Virus record (IMG/VR): IMGVR_UViG_2778261177_000005
Length of the DNA stretch: 43,152 bases
Reading direction: 5' to 3' (one strand)
Source of the DNA: a virus
Taxonomy: Duplodnaviria > Heunggongvirae > Uroviricota > Caudoviricetes
Positions within the stretch are counted from its first letter, which is position 1, and each line of letters begins with the position of its first letter. Shown piece by piece: positions 1,974-42,744 of the stretch. A model generated the notes under the pieces. It saw only the letters and a list, made by a program, of their open reading frames with translations, ran no database searches and was not told the origin of the DNA. Position numbers and translations under genes: made by a program.

Positions 1974-3040
1974 TATGCAAACTCCTCGATAATACAAATC
2001 CCTGCAGCGCCTTTCCCGCCCGTCATACTGGTTCCGCTATAACCGGCATCGTATGCACCACCGCCACCTGAACCATATGCCTTGCCGCTAACACCACCGC
2101 CAGCGCCTGCGCGTCCACCGCCACCCCAGTACGATGTTCCGCCTTCACCGCTGACGCCGATATTTCCGGACTGACCGTCGCCTCCACATCCACCAATGAT
2201 GTTTATATCGCCAGTACTCGGCACACCTCCGTTACCACCGTTTGTGTTTGTGACTCCTGACTTTCCGCCGCCTGCGCCACCAGGAGCAATTAACGATGCG
2301 AATAAGCTATTACCGCCATTGATGCCGTACGTCGCACTAACACCACCGGCCCCACCTGCGCCGATAGTGACTGGATAACTATTCTGTGTCGGGGTCATTA
2401 TTGAAATTATTGTTCCACCGGCCCCACCGCCAGCACCGAAAAACGTTTCATTATTGGATATAGCCTTGCAGCCGCCCCCTCCGCCACCGCCGCCCGTTAT
2501 TGTGACCCTGATCCGTTTTATTCCTGGCGTCGGGGTGTACGTACCTGATGACGTGAAAACCCGGGTATTCACCAAGCGTCCCACGTATCCGTTTGTAGCT
2601 CCCAAACCAAGATAATGAATAACCTCCTGTTTGCTTGTTTTAGCCAGAATATCCCGTCCAACATTAGTCAGGGTTGTCAGGCTGGCTGTATCATTCCCCG
2701 TAAAATACGGTAGTTTGTCTGCCGCAGTGGCAAGGCCTGCCAGTGCGGTCAGTGTGGCGTCAAGCGCCTGGAAATCCTTCCCCAAAGCCGCTTCCATTTT
2801 GGAGATAAACCCGTTCAGGTCACCATCATCAAGCACATCCAGCCCACTTTTATTAGCTGTGTACTGTGCAAGCGCTGCCGTAATAAAGCTGGCCTGTCGA
2901 ATGGCTTTGTTCACCTGCGCACTGGATGCTTTCCCTGCTGTAAATCCGGATAAAAGCGCAGGCAACGCTTCCCATTCCTCCTGCGACATAACATTGGCAT
3001 TTTTACCCGTTGCGAATGCTTTAAAGTCATTTTTTGCCAT
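1973..3040 (-). CDS. stf: side tail fibre protein (P2 gpH-like) with glycine-rich C-terminal half
   Basis: N-terminal region with LPYFTGNDTASLTTLTNVGRDILAK, typical of side tail fibres; Gly-rich C-terminus (GGGGGGGG, GAGGGAGG); start is ambiguous between the coupled ATG at 3040 and the ATG at 3058. Confidence 0.8.
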   Translation of the reverse strand: MAKNDFKAFATGKNANVMSQEEWEALPALLSGFTAGKASSAQVNKAIRQASFITAALAQYTANKSGLDVLDDGDLNGFISKMEAALGKDFQALDATLTALAGLATAADKLPYFTGNDTASLTTLTNVGRDILAKTSKQEVIHYLGLGATNGYVGRLVNTRVFTSSGTYTPTPGIKRIRVTITGGGGGGGGCKAISNNETFFGAGGGAGGTIISIMTPTQNSYPVTIGAGGAGGVSATYGINGGNSLFASLIAPGGAGGGKSGVTNTNGGNGGVPSTGDINIIGGCGGDGQSGNIGVSGEGGTSYWGGGGRAGAGGGVSGKAYGSGGGGAYDAGYSGTSMTGGKGAAGICIIEEFA

Positions 3041-24993: not shown

Positions 24994-25575
24994 TTAAAGC
25001 TGCATCAGCCTTTCCACCAGTTTATCTCTGCGAACAACAAACCAACCATTGGCTCTCGCCAGTTCCAGCCATGACTCAAGGGAAATAACAATATCATCAT
25101 CCCGCAACTGAATTGTGGAAACAGTGACACCGCCTCGCTGATAACAGAGAACTCGCGTGTCGTAACTTTTCTGGCATGAAGCTGGCGCTGACGGATCCTT
25201 TTGTCTGAAATAGCAGTCTTCCAGCTTTTCGAACACATCCCACGCCTGATCGGTTTCGAGCATTTTGGCATGACGGGCTGCTCCGCGTTCTGTCCAGAGG
25301 ATGAGGGAGCGGGCTTTCGGGGAAATTTGTAACCCTCTTAAAGATGGTTGCAAATTTTGTGAGTAGTTTAAAGCTACCCGCAATTCTTTAAGGTCATTAC
25401 CAACAACTTTGAAAAAGTGTTTCCCTTCAACGAAGCGTACTTTGTTCTCATGATGATTCTGGCGAATGCGCACCGGCTCAGTGCCGTAAAGCTGCGCCAA
25501 AAGTTCGGTGGTAATAACAGGAATCTGGTTATGGGTGATCGGGGAGAGAGTTTCAACAGAAATTTGAGTTGTCAT
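24994..25575 (-). CDS. ORF6N-domain (antirepressor-like) protein, first gene downstream of PR'/tR'
   Basis: 193 aa; N-terminal ...IPVITTELLAQLYGTE...KHFFKVVGNDLKEL...LWTERGAARHAKMLETDQAWDVFEKLEDCYF resembles the ORF6N domain as I recall it; RBS GAGGG. Confidence 0.5.
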   Translation of the reverse strand: MTTQISVETLSPITHNQIPVITTELLAQLYGTEPVRIRQNHHENKVRFVEGKHFFKVVGNDLKELRVALNYSQNLQPSLRGLQISPKARSLILWTERGAARHAKMLETDQAWDVFEKLEDCYFRQKDPSAPASCQKSYDTRVLCYQRGGVTVSTIQLRDDDIVISLESWLELARANGWFVVRRDKLVERLMQL

Positions 25576-25732
25576 AATGACGCCCTCTGGTGGTTTCTTA
25601 ATAACTCACCACCGACGACGCCAATCATCTGGTGGTGAACTGTGCAGGGTTGGCGTAACCGGGAAACCGACCGGCGCGGATCTCTCCGCCCCCACACAGC
25701 CCACCATAATTCAGATGTGCGCGTGCATGCGA

Positions 25733-25758
25733 CAATAAAAAACACGCTCGCGGCGTGT
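25733..25758 (-). terminator. tR'-like terminator of the short late leader transcript
   Basis: Minus strand ACACGC-CGCGA-GCGUGU followed by UUUUUUAUU, about 55-80 nt downstream of the PR'-like promoter. Confidence 0.6.
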
Positions 25759-25819
25759 ATCTGTCGCGGTCTCTATCCAGGACGCCAATCCCGACGCCAG
25801 ATTTTGCTGGCGCGTGAGG

Positions 25820-25849
25820 AATATAGCCCCGGATAACAGATTGAGTCAA
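25820..25849 (-). promoter_or_regulatory. PR'-like late promoter (sigma70 -35 TTGACT / 18 bp / -10 TATATT)
   Basis: Minus strand ttgactcaatctgttatccggggctatatt; the -35 overlaps the Q-like stop codon, the classic lambdoid position. Confidence 0.65.
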
Positions 25850-26400
25850 CAGACGGTTTTTAGATCCCCGGAAGAGAATGCATCACGCATCGGCAGATAG
25901 AGCATAAACTCTGCCATTTTCAACCACGCATCTATGCGATTACGGCACGTGGCGTAACACCACTCAGGGTGTGAATCATTCAGCAATTCAGCCATTTTGC
26001 GCTTAGTCATCCCCCTCCCTTCATATCGTTGCCGGAGGATACAAATCAATCCTGGGTGTTCTGCCAGCACTTCACTAATCACCCGATCAATGCATAACGC
26101 CTCTGCATCAGTACAATGTACCAGCCAGCTTTTTTGCTTGCCGTTGATCATATCCCGCAAAAAAGCCTCAAGTTCAGGTTTGTCCAGACCTGCTTTTTTC
26201 ATCCTCCGGAGCGCCTCATTAATTGCCGTTTTTGTCAGCTTTTTAGAGGTCAGCAACTGGTTAAACATATTTCCCGTCTTACCGCCGCCAATATACGACC
26301 AGCGCCCCCACATGCGCAGTTTTCCCTGAATCCAGACACTTTCCAGCGTGGTGAGACGAAGGTGTTCCCCGCTTTTGCCTGTATTTGTTGGGTAAATCAT
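25846..26400 (-). CDS. putative late antiterminator Q
   Basis: ORF 25846..26520; ATG at 26400 overlaps the upstream stop (ATGA); called from position (last nin-region gene, directly upstream of PR'/tR' and lysis genes). Confidence 0.5.
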   Translation of the reverse strand: MIYPTNTGKSGEHLRLTTLESVWIQGKLRMWGRWSYIGGGKTGNMFNQLLTSKKLTKTAINEALRRMKKAGLDKPELEAFLRDMINGKQKSWLVHCTDAEALCIDRVISEVLAEHPGLICILRQRYEGRGMTKRKMAELLNDSHPEWCYATCRNRIDAWLKMAEFMLYLPMRDAFSSGDLKTVC

Positions 26401-26687
26401 AAATAACCTTCCTTTCTCCAGATTTCTTGTGTGCGAAAAACACCTTCTGCATGCATCAGGCGTAATTCTTCTTTGGTGTAATCGCTGTTTTTTACCCGCC
26501 CGTCGATTAAATCGTGGCATGAGCTACAGGCAATCGCTGCCTGCATATCGTGTGGTTTTGTCGCTGTTCCGCACGTCCCCGCCAGCCTGTAATGCGCCAG
26601 CACAGAAGTTTCGGGATTGTGATTGCAGTAGCCAGGAATTCTGACGGTGCACATCTGCCCCCGCGCCGCTTTACGTAAATCCACCAT
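26397..26687 (-). CDS. YbcO-like (DUF1364) putative nuclease, Cys/His-rich
   Basis: 96 aa, MVDLRKAARGQMCTVRIPGYCNHNPETSVLAH...IACSSCHD; resembles DLP12 YbcO as I recall it; nin-region position. Confidence 0.55.
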   Translation of the reverse strand: MVDLRKAARGQMCTVRIPGYCNHNPETSVLAHYRLAGTCGTATKPHDMQAAIACSSCHDLIDGRVKNSDYTKEELRLMHAEGVFRTQEIWRKEGYL

Positions 26688-27845: not shown

Positions 27846-28001
27846 TTACTCCTCAGGTTCGTAAGCTGTGAAGACAGCGACCTCCGTCTGGCCGGTTCGG
27901 ATTCGTACCTCGCAGAGGTCTTTCCTCGTTACCAGTGCCGTCACTATGACGGTAATACAGATGACGATCAGGGCGACTAACATCGCCTTTTGCTGCTTCA
28001 T
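27846..28001 (-). CDS. hok: Hok/Gef-family type I toxin (HokD/RelF-like)
   Basis: 51 aa MKQQKAMLVALIVICITVIVTALVTRKDLCEVRIRTGQTEVAVFTAYEPEE; single TM helix then conserved Cys; RBS AAGGAG; in-frame upstream extension in ORF 27846..28058 in the mok position. Confidence 0.85.
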   Translation of the reverse strand: MKQQKAMLVALIVICITVIVTALVTRKDLCEVRIRTGQTEVAVFTAYEPEE

Positions 28002-28292
28002 AGCCTGCTTCTCCTTGCCTTTCGGCACGTAAGAGGCTAACCTAGATTTGCCGTTCATAGATTGAGCCTCAGATTAATGTTAAGCGTCTTGCAGGACGCG
28101 TAATGTTAACTGGGGCTCTTCTCTATCTGCCTTTTGGTGTTCATGCCCGAGGCAGATAGCCTCAAGCACCCGCAGCAATTTTACTTAACTCCCCTTTTCA
28201 CGCAAACCGTTTTTATCCCCAGCGGCAAATCGAATACACCACCAGCGCCACCGCCATCGCAATTCCTACCGTTGTGAATGCTTCAGGCCAGG

Positions 28293-32400: not shown

Positions 32401-33189
32401 TTACCCCCTGAAGCCTGGCGGGATCGCACTGTCCGGCAACGAGACGGTGTTAACCTGTCGGAGCAACGTCTCAGGCCGAACACCTTTCGGCGCGAACAGG
32501 CCCTGGTATTCATTGGCGATGCTGTGTCGAATCACCTGCTCAGGTGTAAAACCCTGCTGACGGAATTTTTCCAGTTCCCGTATCGCCCCGTTAGCGCCCT
32601 GCTCCGTTCGAATCGGTTTTCGCAATGCCTGTCTGAACCGGACCCACTCATGCCAGAGTGTTTCCGGCAACCAATCGGGCAGCTCAATAGCCTCCGGCTC
32701 GAATTTTTTAGACGCTCGTTTTTGGCGAGGGGGATTTAGGGGGAGATCAGTATTTAGATCTTCCTCTTCCTCTTCCTCTGGTAGCGCTTTTTGATCCGTT
32801 TGTGTAACGCCGGCAGCGTTACCTTTTCGTTTCAGTTCACGTATTTTTGTAACTCGCTCGTTTGTAACCGCCCGTTTTTTAGAGCTTTTTCCGTTATGGC
32901 GTTCAAAGTTAGGTAGAGAAAGCCCAACGTCATTTTCGACCAGCCATCCAACCTGAATTAACGCATCAGCAAAACCAGCCATAAAAGTGATGCGATCTAT
33001 TGCACTTTTTGTAACGCCGCGAGCGTTACAATCTGCATTACCGTCTATCATTTGTTGATCCGCCCATGCCCAGAAGCGAATAACCTTCCCTAATGCGGCA
33101 TCTGGATCAATATTCAGAATCTCAGCAAGCCTGAATATTTCCGGCTTATCCGGCGTAATAACCTCGAGCTTTATCCAGTTTGAAGCCAT
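32401..33189 (-). CDS. replication initiation/replisome organiser protein (O-like, YdaU/DUF1376-like)
   Basis: 262 aa; RBS AAGGTGA; poly-Glu linker (EEEEEED); position upstream of the DnaC-like gene. Confidence 0.55.
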   Translation of the reverse strand: MASNWIKLEVITPDKPEIFRLAEILNIDPDAALGKVIRFWAWADQQMIDGNADCNARGVTKSAIDRITFMAGFADALIQVGWLVENDVGLSLPNFERHNGKSSKKRAVTNERVTKIRELKRKGNAAGVTQTDQKALPEEEEEEDLNTDLPLNPPRQKRASKKFEPEAIELPDWLPETLWHEWVRFRQALRKPIRTEQGANGAIRELEKFRQQGFTPEQVIRHSIANEYQGLFAPKGVRPETLLRQVNTVSLPDSAIPPGFRG

Positions 33190-33221
33190 TTGTTTTCACC
33201 TTGTAACGCTCGCAGCGTTAC
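32803..33221. repeat. three copies of a 19-bp palindrome GTAACGC-N5-GCGTTAC (32803..32821, 33011..33029, 33203..33221)
   Basis: Read directly: gtaacgccggcagcgttac, gtaacgccgcgagcgttac, gtaacgctcgcagcgttac; two inside the O-like gene, one just upstream of its start; about 200-bp spacing. Confidence 0.7.
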
Positions 33222-33266
33222 ATTTAACTGATACCGAACAAAACAATCCGGCACGATTAATTTCAA

Positions 33267-33689
33267 TCAATGCACTACGACAGAATCACCGGGCGACCCA
33301 CCACCGCTGAAATGTGCTTTCCGGTAAACGGCCTGGACTGCATCATCATGCGCATCAATTGCCGTACTCAACGCTTCCTGCGCCGCCAGTAATGCACGGC
33401 GTTCCAGGGTATCGAAGATGCAGAGTCGGTGACGCAGCTCGCGCGGAAGAATTGCCAGAACCGCAGGGATCAGTGTCTGAATTTTTTCCCTTTGCGCTTT
33501 CGTTTCACCTTTTAACCAACGGTGATAGATGTTCTGCTGATTATTCCAGTCCTTGCCTGGTACCAGGGGCAATTCGCCGCCCCCCTGGCGCAGATATTCT
33601 TCAGTAATTGCATTGGCTACCCACGCCTGCCCTTTTTCGGCTGCCAGGGCTAACAACACTGATTCGATGTGCTCATGCCTGATTTTCAT
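33267..33689 (-). CDS. YdaT-like protein (Rac-type early regulator/toxin family)
   Basis: 140 aa; ATGA overlap with the cro-like gene; length and sequence resemble Rac YdaT as I recall it. Confidence 0.5.
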   Translation of the reverse strand: MKIRHEHIESVLLALAAEKGQAWVANAITEEYLRQGGGELPLVPGKDWNNQQNIYHRWLKGETKAQREKIQTLIPAVLAILPRELRHRLCIFDTLERRALLAAQEALSTAIDAHDDAVQAVYRKAHFSGGGSPGDSVVVH

Positions 33690-33928
33690 GAATCAACCGC
33701 TCCTATGCTGTTTTCGCTATGCTTACCGTCTGGGGGGAATACATCGTCAAGTCCACAATGAGCGCCAAGCCGATTAAGGGTAGAAACAATTTTTCTGCAC
33801 TCCTCTAGTCCAGGGGTACGAAAATTTGCTTCGTAATTTGCCAGTCGGCTTTGTATCCACCCTAACTGAACAGCAAGTTGTCTTTGAGACAGCCCAAGCT
33901 GTTTTCGATATGTTGAAATTTTGTTCAT
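33686..33928 (-). CDS. Cro/YdaS-like HTH regulator
   Basis: 80 aa; HTH YRKQLGLSQRQLAVQLGWIQSRLANYE; strong RBS GGAGG; divergent from the repressor gene. Confidence 0.7.
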   Translation of the reverse strand: MNKISTYRKQLGLSQRQLAVQLGWIQSRLANYEANFRTPGLEECRKIVSTLNRLGAHCGLDDVFPPDGKHSENSIGAVDS

Positions 33929-33952
33929 TGAAAACCTCCGATGACAATTTTA

Positions 33953-34013
33953 AACACACCTTGTGTTATATGGTCAAGCTGTTTTGTGTTTTATGTAAAT
34001 CACGATTCGTGAT
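33953..34013. promoter_or_regulatory. divergent promoter/operator region between the cro-like and repressor genes
   Basis: Palindromes aacac-acctt-gtgtt (33953..33967) and atcac-gattc-gtgat (33999..34013); candidate -35/-10 elements on both strands. Confidence 0.6.
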
Positions 34014-34024
34014 ACAAGGATGCA

Positions 34025-34444
34025 ATGGAAAAAGAAAACGAAAAAATTGCCGCTAGTAGGCTCAATGACAAAATTGCAATGCGTCTTAAAGAGCGCAGGC
34101 AGAAGCTTGGTTTATCTCAAGGAAAACTTGCTGAAATCTGCGGATGGACGCAATCGCGTATAGGTAACTATGAGGCGGGCAGCAGAAATGTTGGAGTGCA
34201 TGACGCTGTCGTATTGGGAAAGGCACTTGGCATATCTCCTCCTGAGCTCCTCTTTGGAGAACAGGAATCTTCTGAATTGTGGTTAAATGAATCCCAACGA
34301 AAACTTCTTGAGTTGTTTAACCAGCTACCGGGCTCAGAACAACAACGAATGATTGAGCTATTTGAAGTCCGGCTAAAAGAAATCGATGAGTATGTAGAAA
34401 AATATTTGAGAGGCAGGCTTAAAGATAATCCCCCACCGGAGTAA
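34025..34444 (+). CDS. prophage repressor, HTH XRE-family (RacR/CI-like, no peptidase domain)
   Basis: 139 aa; HTH RQKLGLSQGKLAEICGWTQSRIGNYEAG; RBS AAGGA; divergent from the cro-like gene; followed by a terminator. Confidence 0.75.
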   Translation: MEKENEKIAASRLNDKIAMRLKERRQKLGLSQGKLAEICGWTQSRIGNYEAGSRNVGVHDAVVLGKALGISPPELLFGEQESSELWLNESQRKLLELFNQLPGSEQQRMIELFEVRLKEIDEYVEKYLRGRLKDNPPPE

Positions 34445-34474
34445 TGATCTTGCTATCACAGTAATATGCCAATC

Positions 34475-34498
34475 AGCCCGCTATCAGCGGGCTTTTTT
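34475..34498 (+). terminator. intrinsic terminator after the repressor gene
   Basis: AGCCCGC-UAUCA-GCGGGCU followed by UUUUUU. Confidence 0.75.
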
Positions 34499-34527
34499 GT
34501 ACCATCATAATATGATACCCACCGCAA

Positions 34528-34569
34528 AACACATTTCGTGTTGACACAAGAAAACACATTGTGTTTAAT
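34528..34569 (+). promoter_or_regulatory. PL-like early promoter with two operator palindromes
   Basis: -35 TTGACA (34541..34546), 17 bp, -10 TTTAAT (34564..34569); palindromes aacac-atttc-gtgtt (34528..34542, overlapping -35) and aaacaca-t-tgtgttt (34552..34566). Confidence 0.65.
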
Positions 34570-34743
34570 AAGCATATCCAAACAACGCCCCACCAGAGAA
34601 CGGCAGGACAATACCTCGAGTTATCCAGCCACTGAACAGGGCTAAGTAGCCAGCCTGAGGCATACGAACATGACGGCAGTTGTTGATTGATACAAAGCGC
34701 AGTAGATAAAACGTTCCGCCACCCGGCGTTAAGGGGAAAAAAG

Positions 34744-34962
34744 ATGGTTGGTGAAGATCTGGTTGTTATTAACGGTCAATTGTGCAGCAAAGATGTGGCA
34801 GCCATGCTTATTAGCAAGGTTCTTCCAACTGTGCTGGAGGTCATTGCAGAAAAAGTAAAGGCTGGTCATCCAGACAAGGAAGTTGAAGAGGCGGCAAAAA
34901 CAGTTGTTCATGCCGCTACAGAAGCAATTATTTTGAAGAGCCTAGTTTCGCCCAAGCCTTAA
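34744..34962 (+). CDS. small hypothetical protein, first gene of the PL-like operon
   Basis: ORF 34687..34962; ATG at 34744 has RBS GGGGA 8 nt upstream; 72 aa; not N-like (no arginine-rich motif). Confidence 0.35.
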   Translation: MVGEDLVVINGQLCSKDVAAMLISKVLPTVLEVIAEKVKAGHPDKEVEEAAKTVVHAATEAIILKSLVSPKP

Positions 34963-35122
34963 GTGAATCGGCGCTTTTTTTAGCATCACGTTCATTGAGT
35001 AGTGACAAAAACTCATTCTCAGCATTCTCGATTTCCGAGAAAAATTCTTGATGAGTTGTTTCTCGCTGCGATCTGATGCTGAAAGCTAAAGCAAGTAGCC
35101 AGGCTTTGTCTTTATTATCCAT
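34928..35122 (-). CDS. small hypothetical protein, convergent with 34744..34962
   Basis: 64 aa; weak RBS AAGG; overlaps the 3' end of the plus-strand ORF by 35 nt; one of the pair may be spurious. Confidence 0.3.
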   Translation of the reverse strand: MDNKDKAWLLALAFSIRSQRETTHQEFFSEIENAENEFLSLLNERDAKKSADSLKAWAKLGSSK

Positions 35123-35517
35123 CGGAATACCTTATTACTGGTTGTGTGAGAACTCCAGTATACCACCGAGCCTGAAGTGGTAAAAAGACAGGCGCACAAC
35201 ACGAAGGCGCATTTCCGGTATTCATAAAGAGTCGGTCTTGTCTGTTAAATTTAAATGGTGGGAGTGCGCCTCCGGTTGTAAATAACGACATTGCTATGTG
35301 TAGTCTTTGGCGGCATAAGTTCTACTCCGTGGCTGCCCTGCCACCCCTTTTTAAAGTGAATTTTGTGATGCGGTGAATGCGGCTAAGCGCACGCGGCACA
35401 GTTAAAAGCATCAGTGTTATGGGTGGATTATCCGGCGTTAATTGTTAACTGGTTAACGTCACCTGGAGGCACCAGGCACCGCATCGACAAAATTCATTTG
35501 TAAAAATGGAGATAATT

Positions 35518-40613: not shown

Positions 40614-40808
40614 ATGCGGTATGAAAAAGTCAAACCATGTCCGTTTTGTGGTTGTCCATCAGTAACGGTGAAAGCCATTTCAGGATATTATCGCGCAAAG
40701 TGTAACGGATGCGAATCCCGAACCGGCTATAGTGGAAGTGAAAAAGAAGCACTCGAAAGATGGAATAAACGAACTACTGGAAATAATAATGGAGGTGTTC
40801 ATGTATAA
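40614..40808 (+). CDS. Lar-family restriction alleviation protein (RalR-like)
   Basis: ORF 40599..40808; ATG at 40614 gives 64 aa with CPFCG...CNGC zinc-ribbon; position after recT as in Rac. Confidence 0.55.
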   Translation: MRYEKVKPCPFCGCPSVTVKAISGYYRAKCNGCESRTGYSGSEKEALERWNKRTTGNNNGGVHV

Positions 40809-40989
40809 AATTACTGCCACTATTGAAAAGGAAGGTGGCACTCCTACTAACTGGACAAGATATTCAAAATCTAAATTAACGAAATCAGAATGCGAAAAAA
40901 TGCTCTCAGGGAAAAAAGAAGCAGGCGTGTCCAGAGAGCAGAAAGTAAAGCTGATAAATTTTAATTGCGAGAAACTTCTGTCCTCGTGA
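40801..40989 (+). CDS. small hypothetical protein
   Basis: ORF 40732..40989; ATG at 40801 has RBS GGAGG; 62 aa. Confidence 0.4.
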   Translation: MYKITATIEKEGGTPTNWTRYSKSKLTKSECEKMLSGKKEAGVSREQKVKLINFNCEKLLSS

Positions 40990-42419: not shown

Positions 42420-42549
42420 TTTTAACGTAAATGGATTGTTAAATGTATTTTGGTTGTGATATAACCAAAAAAGACCGGAATACAGAAATTCGAGTAAATT
42501 TCGGGGAATTTCGGGGAGACGCTTGCAACTGATTGATTTTAAATACAAT

Positions 42550-42581
42550 TAAAAAAAGACCGAATACGATTCCTGTATTCG
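42550..42581. repeat. attR: right copy of the 32-bp direct repeat (taaaaaaagaccgaatacgattcctgtattcgg)
   Basis: Matches 1067..1098 with 3 mismatches; forms the 3' terminator hairpin of sdsR. Confidence 0.7.
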
Positions 42582-42653
42582 GTCCAGGGAAATGGCTCTT
42601 GGGAGAGAGCCGTGCGCTAAAAGTTGGCATTAATGCAGGCTTAGTTGCCTTGC
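42551..42653 (-). ncRNA. sdsR: SdsR (RyeB) small RNA
   Basis: Minus strand reads GCAAGGCAACUAAGCCUGCAUUAAUGCCAACUUUUAGCGCACGGCUCUCUCCCAAGAGCCAUUUCCCUGGACCGAAUACAGGAAUCGUAUUCGGUC + U-tract, which matches my recollection of E. coli SdsR; terminator stem CCGAAUAC/GUAUUCGG. Confidence 0.8.
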
Positions 42654-42744
42654 TCTTTAAGAATAGATGACGACGCCAGGTTTTCCAGTTTGCGTGCAAA
42701 ATGGTCAATAAAAAGCGTGGTGGTCATCAGCTTAAATGTTAAAA

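Follow-up and report, generated by a model that had tools for sequence, protein, structure and literature searches.

Does a single repressor control both early operons of the prophage in IMG/VR virus record IMGVR_UViG_2778261177_000005 (Caudoviricetes), and which DNA word would it read? This stretch of 43,152 nucleotides (nt), referred to here as the window, contains an immunity region in which an earlier note described four palindromic operators at PR/PRM-like and PL-like promoters, named after their lambda counterparts, on either side of a repressor gene. Our analysis indicates that the window very probably carries the immunity cassette of a Rac-like lambdoid prophage of Escherichia coli, in which one repressor would act on operators at both PR/PRM and PL. 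The switch appears ordinary in kind. Its predicted specificity is what seems new among the well-known lambdoid, DicA-type immunity switches, with binding deduced from sequence.

Direct reading of positions 33000-35400 recovered all four palindromes of the earlier note. The divergent cro-like and repressor genes that it had placed around the first two are also present; their products both match the Pfam helix-turn-helix (HTH) family HTH_3, and the genes are separated by 96 bp (Table 1). The count of four operators was too low, as one site, OR2, had been missed. Thus, five sites are recognized here, three right operators (OR1, OR2, and OR3) between the two genes and two left operators (OL2 and OL1) at PL. 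The OR sites are centered at 33960, 33983, and 34006. OR2 overlaps the -35 hexamer of PR by 2 bp and abuts the putative -35 hexamer of PRM, and the final base of OR3 is the first base of the putative PRM -10 hexamer. The position of OL1 in PL is the same as that of OR1 in PR. Each promoter combines a perfect site with an imperfect one at a distance of 23 bp, a pattern that suggests cooperative binding in pairs.

Table 1. Predicted operators, promoters, and genes of the immunity region, with the candidate inducer gene (window coordinates)
Feature	Position	Strand	Description
OR1	33953..33967		AACACaccttGTGTT; 10/10 match; in PR spacer, overlaps PR -10
OR2	33976..33990		AAGCTgttttGTGTT; 7/10 match, right half perfect; 23 bp from OR1
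OR3	33999..34013		ATCACgattcGTGAT; variant word; 23 bp from OR2
OL2	34528..34542		AACACatttcGTGTT; 10/10 match; overlaps PL -35 by 2 bp (offset -13)
OL1	34551..34565		AAAACacattGTGTT; 9/10 match; in PL spacer and -10; 23 bp from OL2
PR-like promoter (cro/ydaT/replication genes), predicted	33949..33977	-	-35 TTGACC 33977-33972, 17-bp spacer, -10 TTTAAA 33954-33949
PRM-like promoter, weak, predicted	33991..34018	+	-35 TTATGT 33991-96 (16-bp spacer) or TTTATG 33990-95 (17-bp spacer); -10 TACAAG 34013-18
PL-like promoter	34541..34569	+	TTGACA 34541-46, 17-bp spacer, TTTAAT 34564-69
Immunity repressor gene, 139 amino acids (aa)	34025..34444	+	N-terminal 434/P22-c2-like HTH (~14-77), linker, DicA-type C-terminal helical hairpin (89-133)
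cro-like gene, 80 aa, HTH_3	33686..33928	-	HTH LGWIQSRLANYEA resembles the repressor HTH
Terminator-like hairpin and T run after repressor gene	34475..34500 (hairpin 34475-34493)	+	8 pairs, 6 G-C
YdaT-family gene, CII-like activator, 3' of cro	33267..33689	-	Pfam YdaT_toxin 9e-11; PHROG 163 'CII-like transcriptional activator' 3e-36
Anti-repressor gene, candidate inducer, 193 aa	24994..25575	-	PHROG 2379 anti-repressor 7e-94

The earlier note had proposed a motif search for further copies, and this search pointed back to the same region. The exact word AACAC-N5-GTGTT occurs twice in 43 kb, against 0.04 matches expected, and the generalized word AWCAC-N5-GTGWT occurs three times, against 0.19 expected; none of 100 shuffles reached either count. 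All copies, exact or generalized, lie within 600 bp around the repressor gene and flank it. The ACAC-N3-GTGT core was unremarkable, with three matches against 0.62 expected and 3 of 100 shuffles reaching three.

For comparison, 43 loci were fetched in all, and the test of co-variation between repressor and operator word covered 33 loci. Ten loci make up class A, which has the repressor helix GW(T/A)QSR(I/V)GNYE and is found in Escherichia, Salmonella, Serratia, Klebsiella, Enterobacter, Brenneria, Citrobacter, and Dryocola; the class-A repressors are 57-84% identical. Repressor homologues reach 84% identity in Salmonella and ~55-68% in Serratia, Klebsiella, Citrobacter, Kluyvera, Yersinia, Pectobacterium, and others. 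In the 10 class-A loci, all ten half-site columns of OR1 had an identity of 1.0, and its center columns had identities of 0.4-0.7. The class-A intergenic alignment contained invariant AAACAC and GTGTT (OR1), TCAA (PR -35, cro strand), and A.CAC....CGTG.TA (OR3), and the five central bases of each site differed in almost every genus. The tripartite arrangement, with 23-bp spacing (23/24 bp across loci), was kept in 10 loci. On the cro strand, each of the 10 class-A loci has TTGAC(N)-17-TTTAA(N), with OR1 at offset +10 from the first -35 base and with invariant GTCAA columns, and the layout of PL was that of PR in all nine loci with a PL.

The less perfect OR sites varied more among relatives. 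OR2 reads AACAC-N5-G(G/T)nTT in most of them and AAGCTgttttGTGTT in the window and Salmonella. The OR3 equivalent is ATCACgcatcGTGAT in Salmonella (center gcatc) and AACAC-N5-GTG(G/A)T in other relatives. Since Salmonella reads ATCACgcatcGTGAT, only the 5-N5-5 form of this site is conserved; the string that the earlier note gave for it is present in the window, but relatives keep it as ATCAC-N5-GTGAT with a variable center and without the 7-1-7 palindrome. Taken as functional units, the 7-1-7 palindromes at OR3 and at the fourth site of the earlier note were rejected, as their arms outside the 5-bp half-sites are unconserved in Salmonella and other relatives. Five other E. coli copies vary at eight OR positions, none of which is among the 30 half-site positions (~0.05 by chance), and their OL2 differs in its center only.

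Across the 33 loci, the exact word occurs only in the helix class of the window and only at the OR1 and PL positions. The words of the other classes were extracted by a geometric rule. The repressor helix GWATASRVGNYE pairs with GACAC/GTGTC, GWSGA(S/P)R(V/L)ANYE with TTCAC/GTGAA, and GWSGSSRIANYE with CTCAC/GTGAG. Unrelated HTH domains on the same C-terminal domain pair with TAAAC/GTTTA, GTAAAC-type, and other words, and DicA of the Qin prophage pairs with TGTTAGTCA-type words. Within each locus of every class, the word in PR is the word in PL. The half-site word follows the HTH class of the repressor and not Cro. The boundaries of the exchanged unit can be read from E. coli EC18, which matches the window at 95% identity as far as the ydaT/cro junction (33697) and becomes similar once more at 34578, 8 bp past the PL -10; in between, EC18 has a different cro, a different repressor, and GTAC-type words. 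These junctions define an exchangeable immunity cassette at 33698-34577, to which the palindromes belong. Its order (cro-like gene, OR1/OR2/OR3 at 23-bp spacing, 139-aa repressor gene, terminator, and OL2/OL1 on a TTGACA-17-TTTAAT promoter) is kept across ~30 related loci in at least 12 genera. The core of the earlier proposal, in which one repressor would have its operators at both the PR/PRM-like and the PL-like promoter, is thus strongly supported by comparative evidence.

A module of this kind might still be a decayed relic in a cryptic prophage, with operators that are real in origin and now control nothing. Many Rac-like and Qin-like elements of E. coli are cryptic, a third PL site found in relatives is missing from the window, and OL1 and OR2 are imperfect. 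However, every gene of the cassette is intact, and the single-nucleotide differences among strains spare the half-sites. Translation of the repressor gene from four E. coli variants gave one and the same protein, and RefSeq has a single accession, WP_000410105.1, for these four and for strain 300709; the strains checked come from different serotypes. In the RefSeq annotation of a copy with 99.4% identity, the prophage retains replication, lysis, terminase, Q, int, and xis genes. In addition, the cryptic Qin and CP-933P prophages still have working switches (PMC10448788, PMC8630535). We therefore regard decay of the switch as improbable. The full module is present in 153 of 5,426 complete E. 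coli genomes and the OR region in 137 of the complete genomes, O157:H7 and O145 strains among them.

The palindromes could also be primarily or solely Cro sites, with the 139-aa protein recognizing something else or nothing here. The recognition helix of Cro is nearly identical to that of the repressor, so the sequence by itself cannot tell which protein is the binder; the two proteins share 45% identity over a 42-residue HTH stretch (E 2e-10; GWIQSRLANYEA versus GWTQSRIGNYEA). Two Salmonella loci bear on this question. L017 (1150-1404) and L032 (1148-1402) encode an identical 84-aa Cro-like protein, nearly identical to the window Cro over the first ~55 residues, and have the PL leader in common, but they are heteroimmune: their repressor HTH domains differ, and L017 has AACAC words where L032 has TTCAC/CTCAC words at OR and OL. 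Thus, the outer bases of the sites at OR1 and PL track the repressor HTH. The OR3-type sequence (A/T)TCAC-N5-GTGAT is the only one that the window, L017, and L032 have in common (ATCAC...GTGAT in the window and L017, TTCAC...GTGAT in L032), which speaks for Cro at that site. By contrast, the word is tied to the repressor helix class over the 33 loci, and phage mEp213 has a different Cro with the same words and a related CI HTH. Cro as the main or sole reader of these palindromes is accordingly very unlikely.

A tentative and rather doubtful extension is that specificity is split between the two proteins. The repressor would read the outer two half-site bases (AA, GA, TT, or CT before CAC), and Cro would read the CAC-N5-GTG core or only OR3-type (A/T)TCAC...GTGAT sites. 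In that case, one and the same Cro would serve heteroimmune cassettes, as in L017 and L032, with a nearly identical Cro in the window. If this were true, the Cro of an induced prophage could silence PRM in co-resident prophages insensitive to the repressor of that prophage, and heteroimmune prophages would have a route by which to cross-induce one another. The immunity code would then be a simple one of two bases, open to engineering.

The fourth palindrome of the earlier note, AAACACAtTGTGTTT at 34552-34566, was described as unusual because its half-sites are 3 bp apart. It could represent a distinct operator, read in another mode or by another protein, which would make the control of PL unlike that of PR. 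In the window it is indeed a perfect 7-1-7 palindrome overlapping the OL1 frame, with a perfect AACAC (34553-57) only 3 bp from GTGTT, and Salmonella has ATCAT at the corresponding N3 position. However, this palindrome is absent from all relatives compared. The conserved register is N5, as for OR1 in PR: the promoter-spacer site lies at offset +10 from the -35 in every relative (+11 in Salmonella L017, which has an 18-bp spacer), and a 10/10 site lies at offset -13 in 9/9 class-A loci having a PL. The second PL site scores 7-9/10 in relatives, as AACAC-N5-GAGTT or AGGTT in several genera and ATATC-N5-GTGTT in Salmonella and Brenneria. A change of A to G at 34556 in three of the five other E. 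coli copies (O157:H7 and O145 included) breaks both the 7-1-7 palindrome and the N3 AACAC; this position falls within the five central bases of the N5 register, and the change leaves the OL1 half-sites intact. The N3 core is statistically ordinary, as noted above, and a 2-bp change in half-site spacing would turn the half-sites by ~70 degrees, a difference that a single dimer would bridge only with difficulty. Because the palindrome is unconserved, is broken at 34556, and has an ordinary core, the 3-bp spacing is best seen as an artifact of framing, and the conserved 5-N5-5 register gives AAAACacattGTGTT instead. There is little chance that the fourth palindrome is an operator of its own.

A third frame for this site, AACACattgtGTTTA at 34553-67 (8/10), perhaps a hybrid with the TAAAC/GTTTA of Serratia locus L007, was also considered and seems less likely, as the +10 register fits all loci. 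The PL core of the window (34541-34570, TTGACACAAGAAAACACATTGTGTTTAATA) differs from that of Serratia montpellierensis L007 (~3006-3036, TTGACACCAGAATAAACATTGTGTTTAATA) at 4/31 positions, and the L007 cassette has a different repressor and the word TAAAC-N5-GTTTA. This likeness may reflect shared ancestry or recombination inside PL, which could account for an accidental 7-1-7 palindrome.

That the palindromes arose by chance or as a by-product of promoter conservation, with no operator role, is scarcely credible. Promoter constraint on GTGTT overlapping TTGACA/TTTAAT may explain a part, since the right half of OL2 overlaps the -35 and those of OL1 and OR1 overlap the -10, but the distal half-sites, 10 bp off and outside the hexamers, are just as invariant, the hexamers stay constant while the words change between repressor classes, the exact word is 50-fold over chance expectation, and OR3 lies outside the -35 and -10 of PR and PL.

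Several observations nevertheless weigh against control of both early operons by one repressor in the form given here. OL1 and OR2 have a single good half-site apiece and would need the assumed cooperativity to be occupied. The -10 hexamers TTTAAT and TTTAAA lack the canonical -11A, which makes promoter strength uncertain. The earlier note had called PL strong; its hexamers and 17-bp spacing are present, but a consensus scan omitted the promoter, because TTTAAT has no A at -10 position 2 (-11A). In Yersinia L023/L024 (1407-1500, ~2060-2130), the repressor and Cro share helix 3 of the window (GWSQSRIGNYE), helix 2 is different, and the operators have AATTC/GAATT half-sites with some AACAC or GTGTT halves despite the same helix 3 (QSRIGNYE). 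The mapping from helix to word is thus not one-to-one; other residues must contribute, helix 3 alone being insufficient, and a simple code of helix 3 and operator word is contradicted by L023. A single Cro occurs together with different words, which complicates any prediction of how it would read the sites. Finally, an exact LexA box (CTGT-N8-ACAG), which might have pointed to a trigger for the antirepressor, was not found anywhere in the window.

The repressor itself belongs, by its size, HTH_3 domain, and C-terminal domain, with the short prophage repressors of DicA type (~125-140 aa), although its predicted specificity differs from that of DicA. Over residues 14-135 it shares 29% identity with the verified DicA of K-12 (E 2e-15). 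The match takes in the C-terminal LLELFxxLPxSEQ...RLKE segment, which is conserved even in homologues with unrelated HTH domains. An AlphaFold model (predicted local distance difference test score, pLDDT, 85) has a five-helix N-domain, a linker, and helices at 89-99 and 103-133, and its N-domain superposes on C.AhdI, P22 c2, and 434 repressor/Cro at ~1.0-1.2 A. A sequence search of solved structures matched the HTH domain only, the C-terminal domain having no solved homologue among them. No S24 peptidase domain was found in the repressor by a Pfam search, which gave HTH families only. The protein therefore falls outside the autocleaving Lambda CI/LexA (S24) family, which is marked by a C-terminal Peptidase_S24 domain and an Ala-Gly cleavage site, although its N-domain is shared with members such as mEp213 CI.

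Lacking an autocleavage domain, the repressor is expected to be inactivated by an antirepressor and not by RecA-mediated cleavage. The candidate antirepressor of the prophage (Table 1) is probably the induction route of this non-cleavable protein, the link between the two being a prediction. On the minus strand, the antirepressor gene (25575-24994) comes after Rfam matches to the isrK and C4/c4-a1b1 antisense RNAs (25826-25628), which themselves lie behind a Q-like antiterminator gene (26520-25846). This layout (24994-26520) resembles P1 c4-ant or Gifsy-1 isrK-anrP.

Taken together, the following scheme is proposed. The repressor, presumably a dimer held by its C-terminal helical hairpin, would bind the 15-bp word A(A/T)CAC-N5-GTG(T/A)T with an HTH of 434/P22-c2 type, with no direct readout of the five central bases. 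Occupation of OR1, in the PR spacer and -10, and of OR2, on the PR -35, would shut off cro, ydaT, and the replication genes. From OR2, next to the weak PRM -35, the repressor could activate its own, probably leaderless, transcript. Binding to OR3, over the PRM -10, would turn PRM off at high repressor levels or upon Cro binding. Likewise, OL2 (-35) and OL1 (spacer and -10) would repress PL, the driver of the kil/recET/xis/int operon. With its near-identical recognition helix, the Cro-like protein is expected on the same sites with another preference, probably OR3 first. Induction is expected to proceed through the prophage antirepressor.

The leaderless state of the PRM transcript is predicted from promoter position. 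Of 18 loci, 14 have a TAnnnn hexamer at -12 to -7 relative to the repressor ATG, and another three have it one base farther from the ATG, so transcription may start at the A of the ATG at 34025. PRM in relatives reads TTGAGT-17-TAAAAA. Leaderless repressor mRNA has been demonstrated experimentally for lambda cI and PaaR2 (PMC8630535). An apparent Shine-Dalgarno sequence, AAGGA, with an out-of-frame ATG (34020) is present at 34016-34025, upstream of the putative leaderless start; this AAGGA could serve a longer transcript of the establishment type, for example, from a PRE-like promoter.

This analysis leaves the understanding of how lambdoid switches work unchanged. It provides a testable, precise map of operators and promoters for an immunity type present in ~140-150 of 5,426 complete E. 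coli genomes, including O157:H7 and O145 Shiga toxin-producing strains, and in relatives among many Enterobacterales. The table of repressor classes against half-site words amounts to a ready-made set of natural orthogonal repressor/operator pairs. Furthermore, the C-terminal domain that accompanies one HTH domain and its operator word seems to be either cleavable and SOS-inducible or of DicA type and antirepressor-inducible.

The surroundings of the cassette fit a lambdoid prophage. On the cro side are YdaT/CII-like, replication protein, and DnaC-like genes (Pfam and PHROG), and on the PL side are a 72-aa open reading frame (ORF; hyp72), kilR, ydaE, recE, recT, ralR, xis, and int (RefSeq annotation of the 99.4% identical copy). 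The intrinsic terminator that the earlier note had placed between the repressor gene and PL was confirmed as a hairpin with a T run starting 30 bp past the repressor stop codon; PL then follows, and no toxin-antitoxin pair is cotranscribed with the repressor. An equivalent hairpin and T run follow the repressor gene in most related loci, not in L004, L008, and L025. Enterobacter L025/L026 (1925-3082) have a 385-aa HSDR_N-domain gene inserted after the repressor gene and ahead of PL, where lambda has rexAB. In these loci, PL is shifted by ~1.2 kb together with the leader element, and the operator words at PL are degenerate (ATCACgaaatGGGTT). The prophage adjoins ryeA/ryeB (Rfam). Rfam matches were obtained for the RalA antitoxin RNA, which accompanies ralR (40807-40985), for sok, which accompanies hokD (27996-28171), and for the SraC/RyeA-SdsR/RyeB pair (42547-42691), giving two type I toxin-antitoxin systems on the prophage and the RNA pair at its edge.

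Directly 3' of PL, a non-coding leader (34578-34743) is common to cassettes of different immunity and is also present in L001-L013, L017, L021, L023, L027-L032, and L036. Most genera have it as a three-helix element of ~66 nt that shows compensatory changes and whose AGTAGC and GCRTAYGAA loops are invariant; the window leader is a diverged version ('type 1') that retains these motifs at 34645-34668. A small G+C-rich hairpin, CGCC-loop-GGCG, precedes the first ORF of the PL operon (34707-34743 in the window; 1770-1800 in the Qin locus L035). Conservation of this hairpin extends from the window to the dicB leader of Qin, and in other loci it covaries as CGTC/GACG and CGCT/AGCG; CGCAG(C/T)AG stands before it and TTAAGGGG after it. 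Rfam, searched at its gathering threshold and at permissive ones, gave nothing relevant in 34440-35000, and an N-like gene was not found after PL. The leader was compared with the put-type antiterminator of HK022: there was no blastn match to HK022 and no obvious likeness by eye, and the window has one copy. A covariance model of the type-2 leader matched neither the window leader, HK022, nor Qin. The leader may be a cis-acting antitermination or stability element, and it is not recognizably HK022 put. PP818812.1 ('Actinobacillus phage vB_Apl-pPE4') matches the window at 100% identity over the end of ydaT and the PL leader; it carries a DicA-type repressor of 62% identity, which looks enterobacterial. 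A 'Sphingomonas sp.' contig (L014) bears part of the enterobacterial module, and host assignment or contamination is questionable in both records.

Among known systems, the closest in repressor type is DicA of Qin in E. coli K-12, a 135-aa HTH repressor without a cleavage site that has the same LLELFxxLPxSEQ C-terminal helical domain as the window repressor. As in the window, the cro-like gene is divergent, an operator covers the -10 of its promoter, and the PL-like dicBp, just 3' of the repressor gene, has the operator word within a 17-bp spacer. Oc, to which DicA binds, covers the dicC -10; DicA also activates its own gene and represses dicBp, and induction comes from the antirepressor Rem, not from cleavage (PMC3441716, PMC10448788). 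Unlike the window sites, Oc (TTGTTAGTCATAACTAACAA) is a 20-bp inverted repeat with an unrelated word, and the recognition helix differs. The Oc word is not present at the window sites, whose words are A(A/T)CAC-N5-GTG(T/A)T (PMC3441716). Of three sequence-predicted sites, DicA has been reported on Oc only.

The PaaR2/YdaS/YdaT switch of CP-933P has a 97-bp intergenic region (96 bp in the window), a footprinted multi-site OR, and OL1-3 at a PL that has the same -35 and -10 as PR; it is bistable, and YdaT is its CII analogue (PMC8630535). The window resembles it in intergenic length and in the YdaT-family CII analogue after the cro-like gene, and the leaderless repressor mRNA, demonstrated in CP-933P, is predicted in the window. 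However, the CP-933P operators are 18-bp repeats of the GTTTAGTAA type, and PaaR2 is cotranscribed with the ParE2/PaaA2 toxin-antitoxin pair, whereas a terminator directly follows the window repressor gene.

The operator word itself recurs in phages with longer repressors. By tblastn, the CI N-domain of mEp213 is 58% identical to repressor residues 12-80, and CI of VT1-Sakai and mEpX1 is 49% identical. The mEp213 OR sites (AACACatattGTGAT, AACACaaatcGTGTA, and ACCACggaatGTGAT) and OL sites (AACACgtgttGTGAT; ATCACatttcGTGTT, on the -35 TTGACA; and AACACaatttGTGAT, in the spacer) have A(A/T)CAC-N5-GTG(T/A)T in the register and geometry of the window, with AACAC and ATCAC halves mixed. Unlike the window repressor with its DicA-type C terminus, CI of mEp213 (213 aa) has a LexA/S24-type autocleavage domain, as does that of VT1-Sakai (~213 aa); mEp213 also has N and a classical nutL, whereas the window has no N gene. 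The GenBank record of VT1-Sakai, an Stx1 phage, annotates three 'putative operator' 17-mers in the register of the window, and Citrobacter phage Chris1 has a short-repressor version with AACAC words. Aside from the VT1-Sakai annotation, a limited literature search found no paper on this word, giving primer-type coincidences only, and no operator study was found in the mEp213 immunity literature.

In the Gifsy-1 prophage, the antirepressor gene lies next to isrK/C4-type RNAs, and the window antirepressor gene likewise adjoins RNAs of this type. The Gifsy repressors GfoR and GfhR, to which the window repressor can be likened by description, are short, non-cleavable, and inactivated by trans-acting antirepressors (summarized in PMC10448788).

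Compared with lambda, the window has the same tripartite OR with ~23-24-bp spacing over divergent PR and PRM, the same word at PL, and sites probably shared by repressor and Cro. It differs in that the repressor has no RecA-sensitive C-terminal domain, OL is ~575 bp from OR, and the cII analogue is of the YdaT family. With 434 it has in common palindromic half-sites around an uncontacted center (ACAA-N6-TTGT in 434) and an HTH fold that superposes at ~1 A. At 15 bp, the window operators fall between those of 434 (14 bp) and those of lambda (17 bp) and P22 (18 bp).

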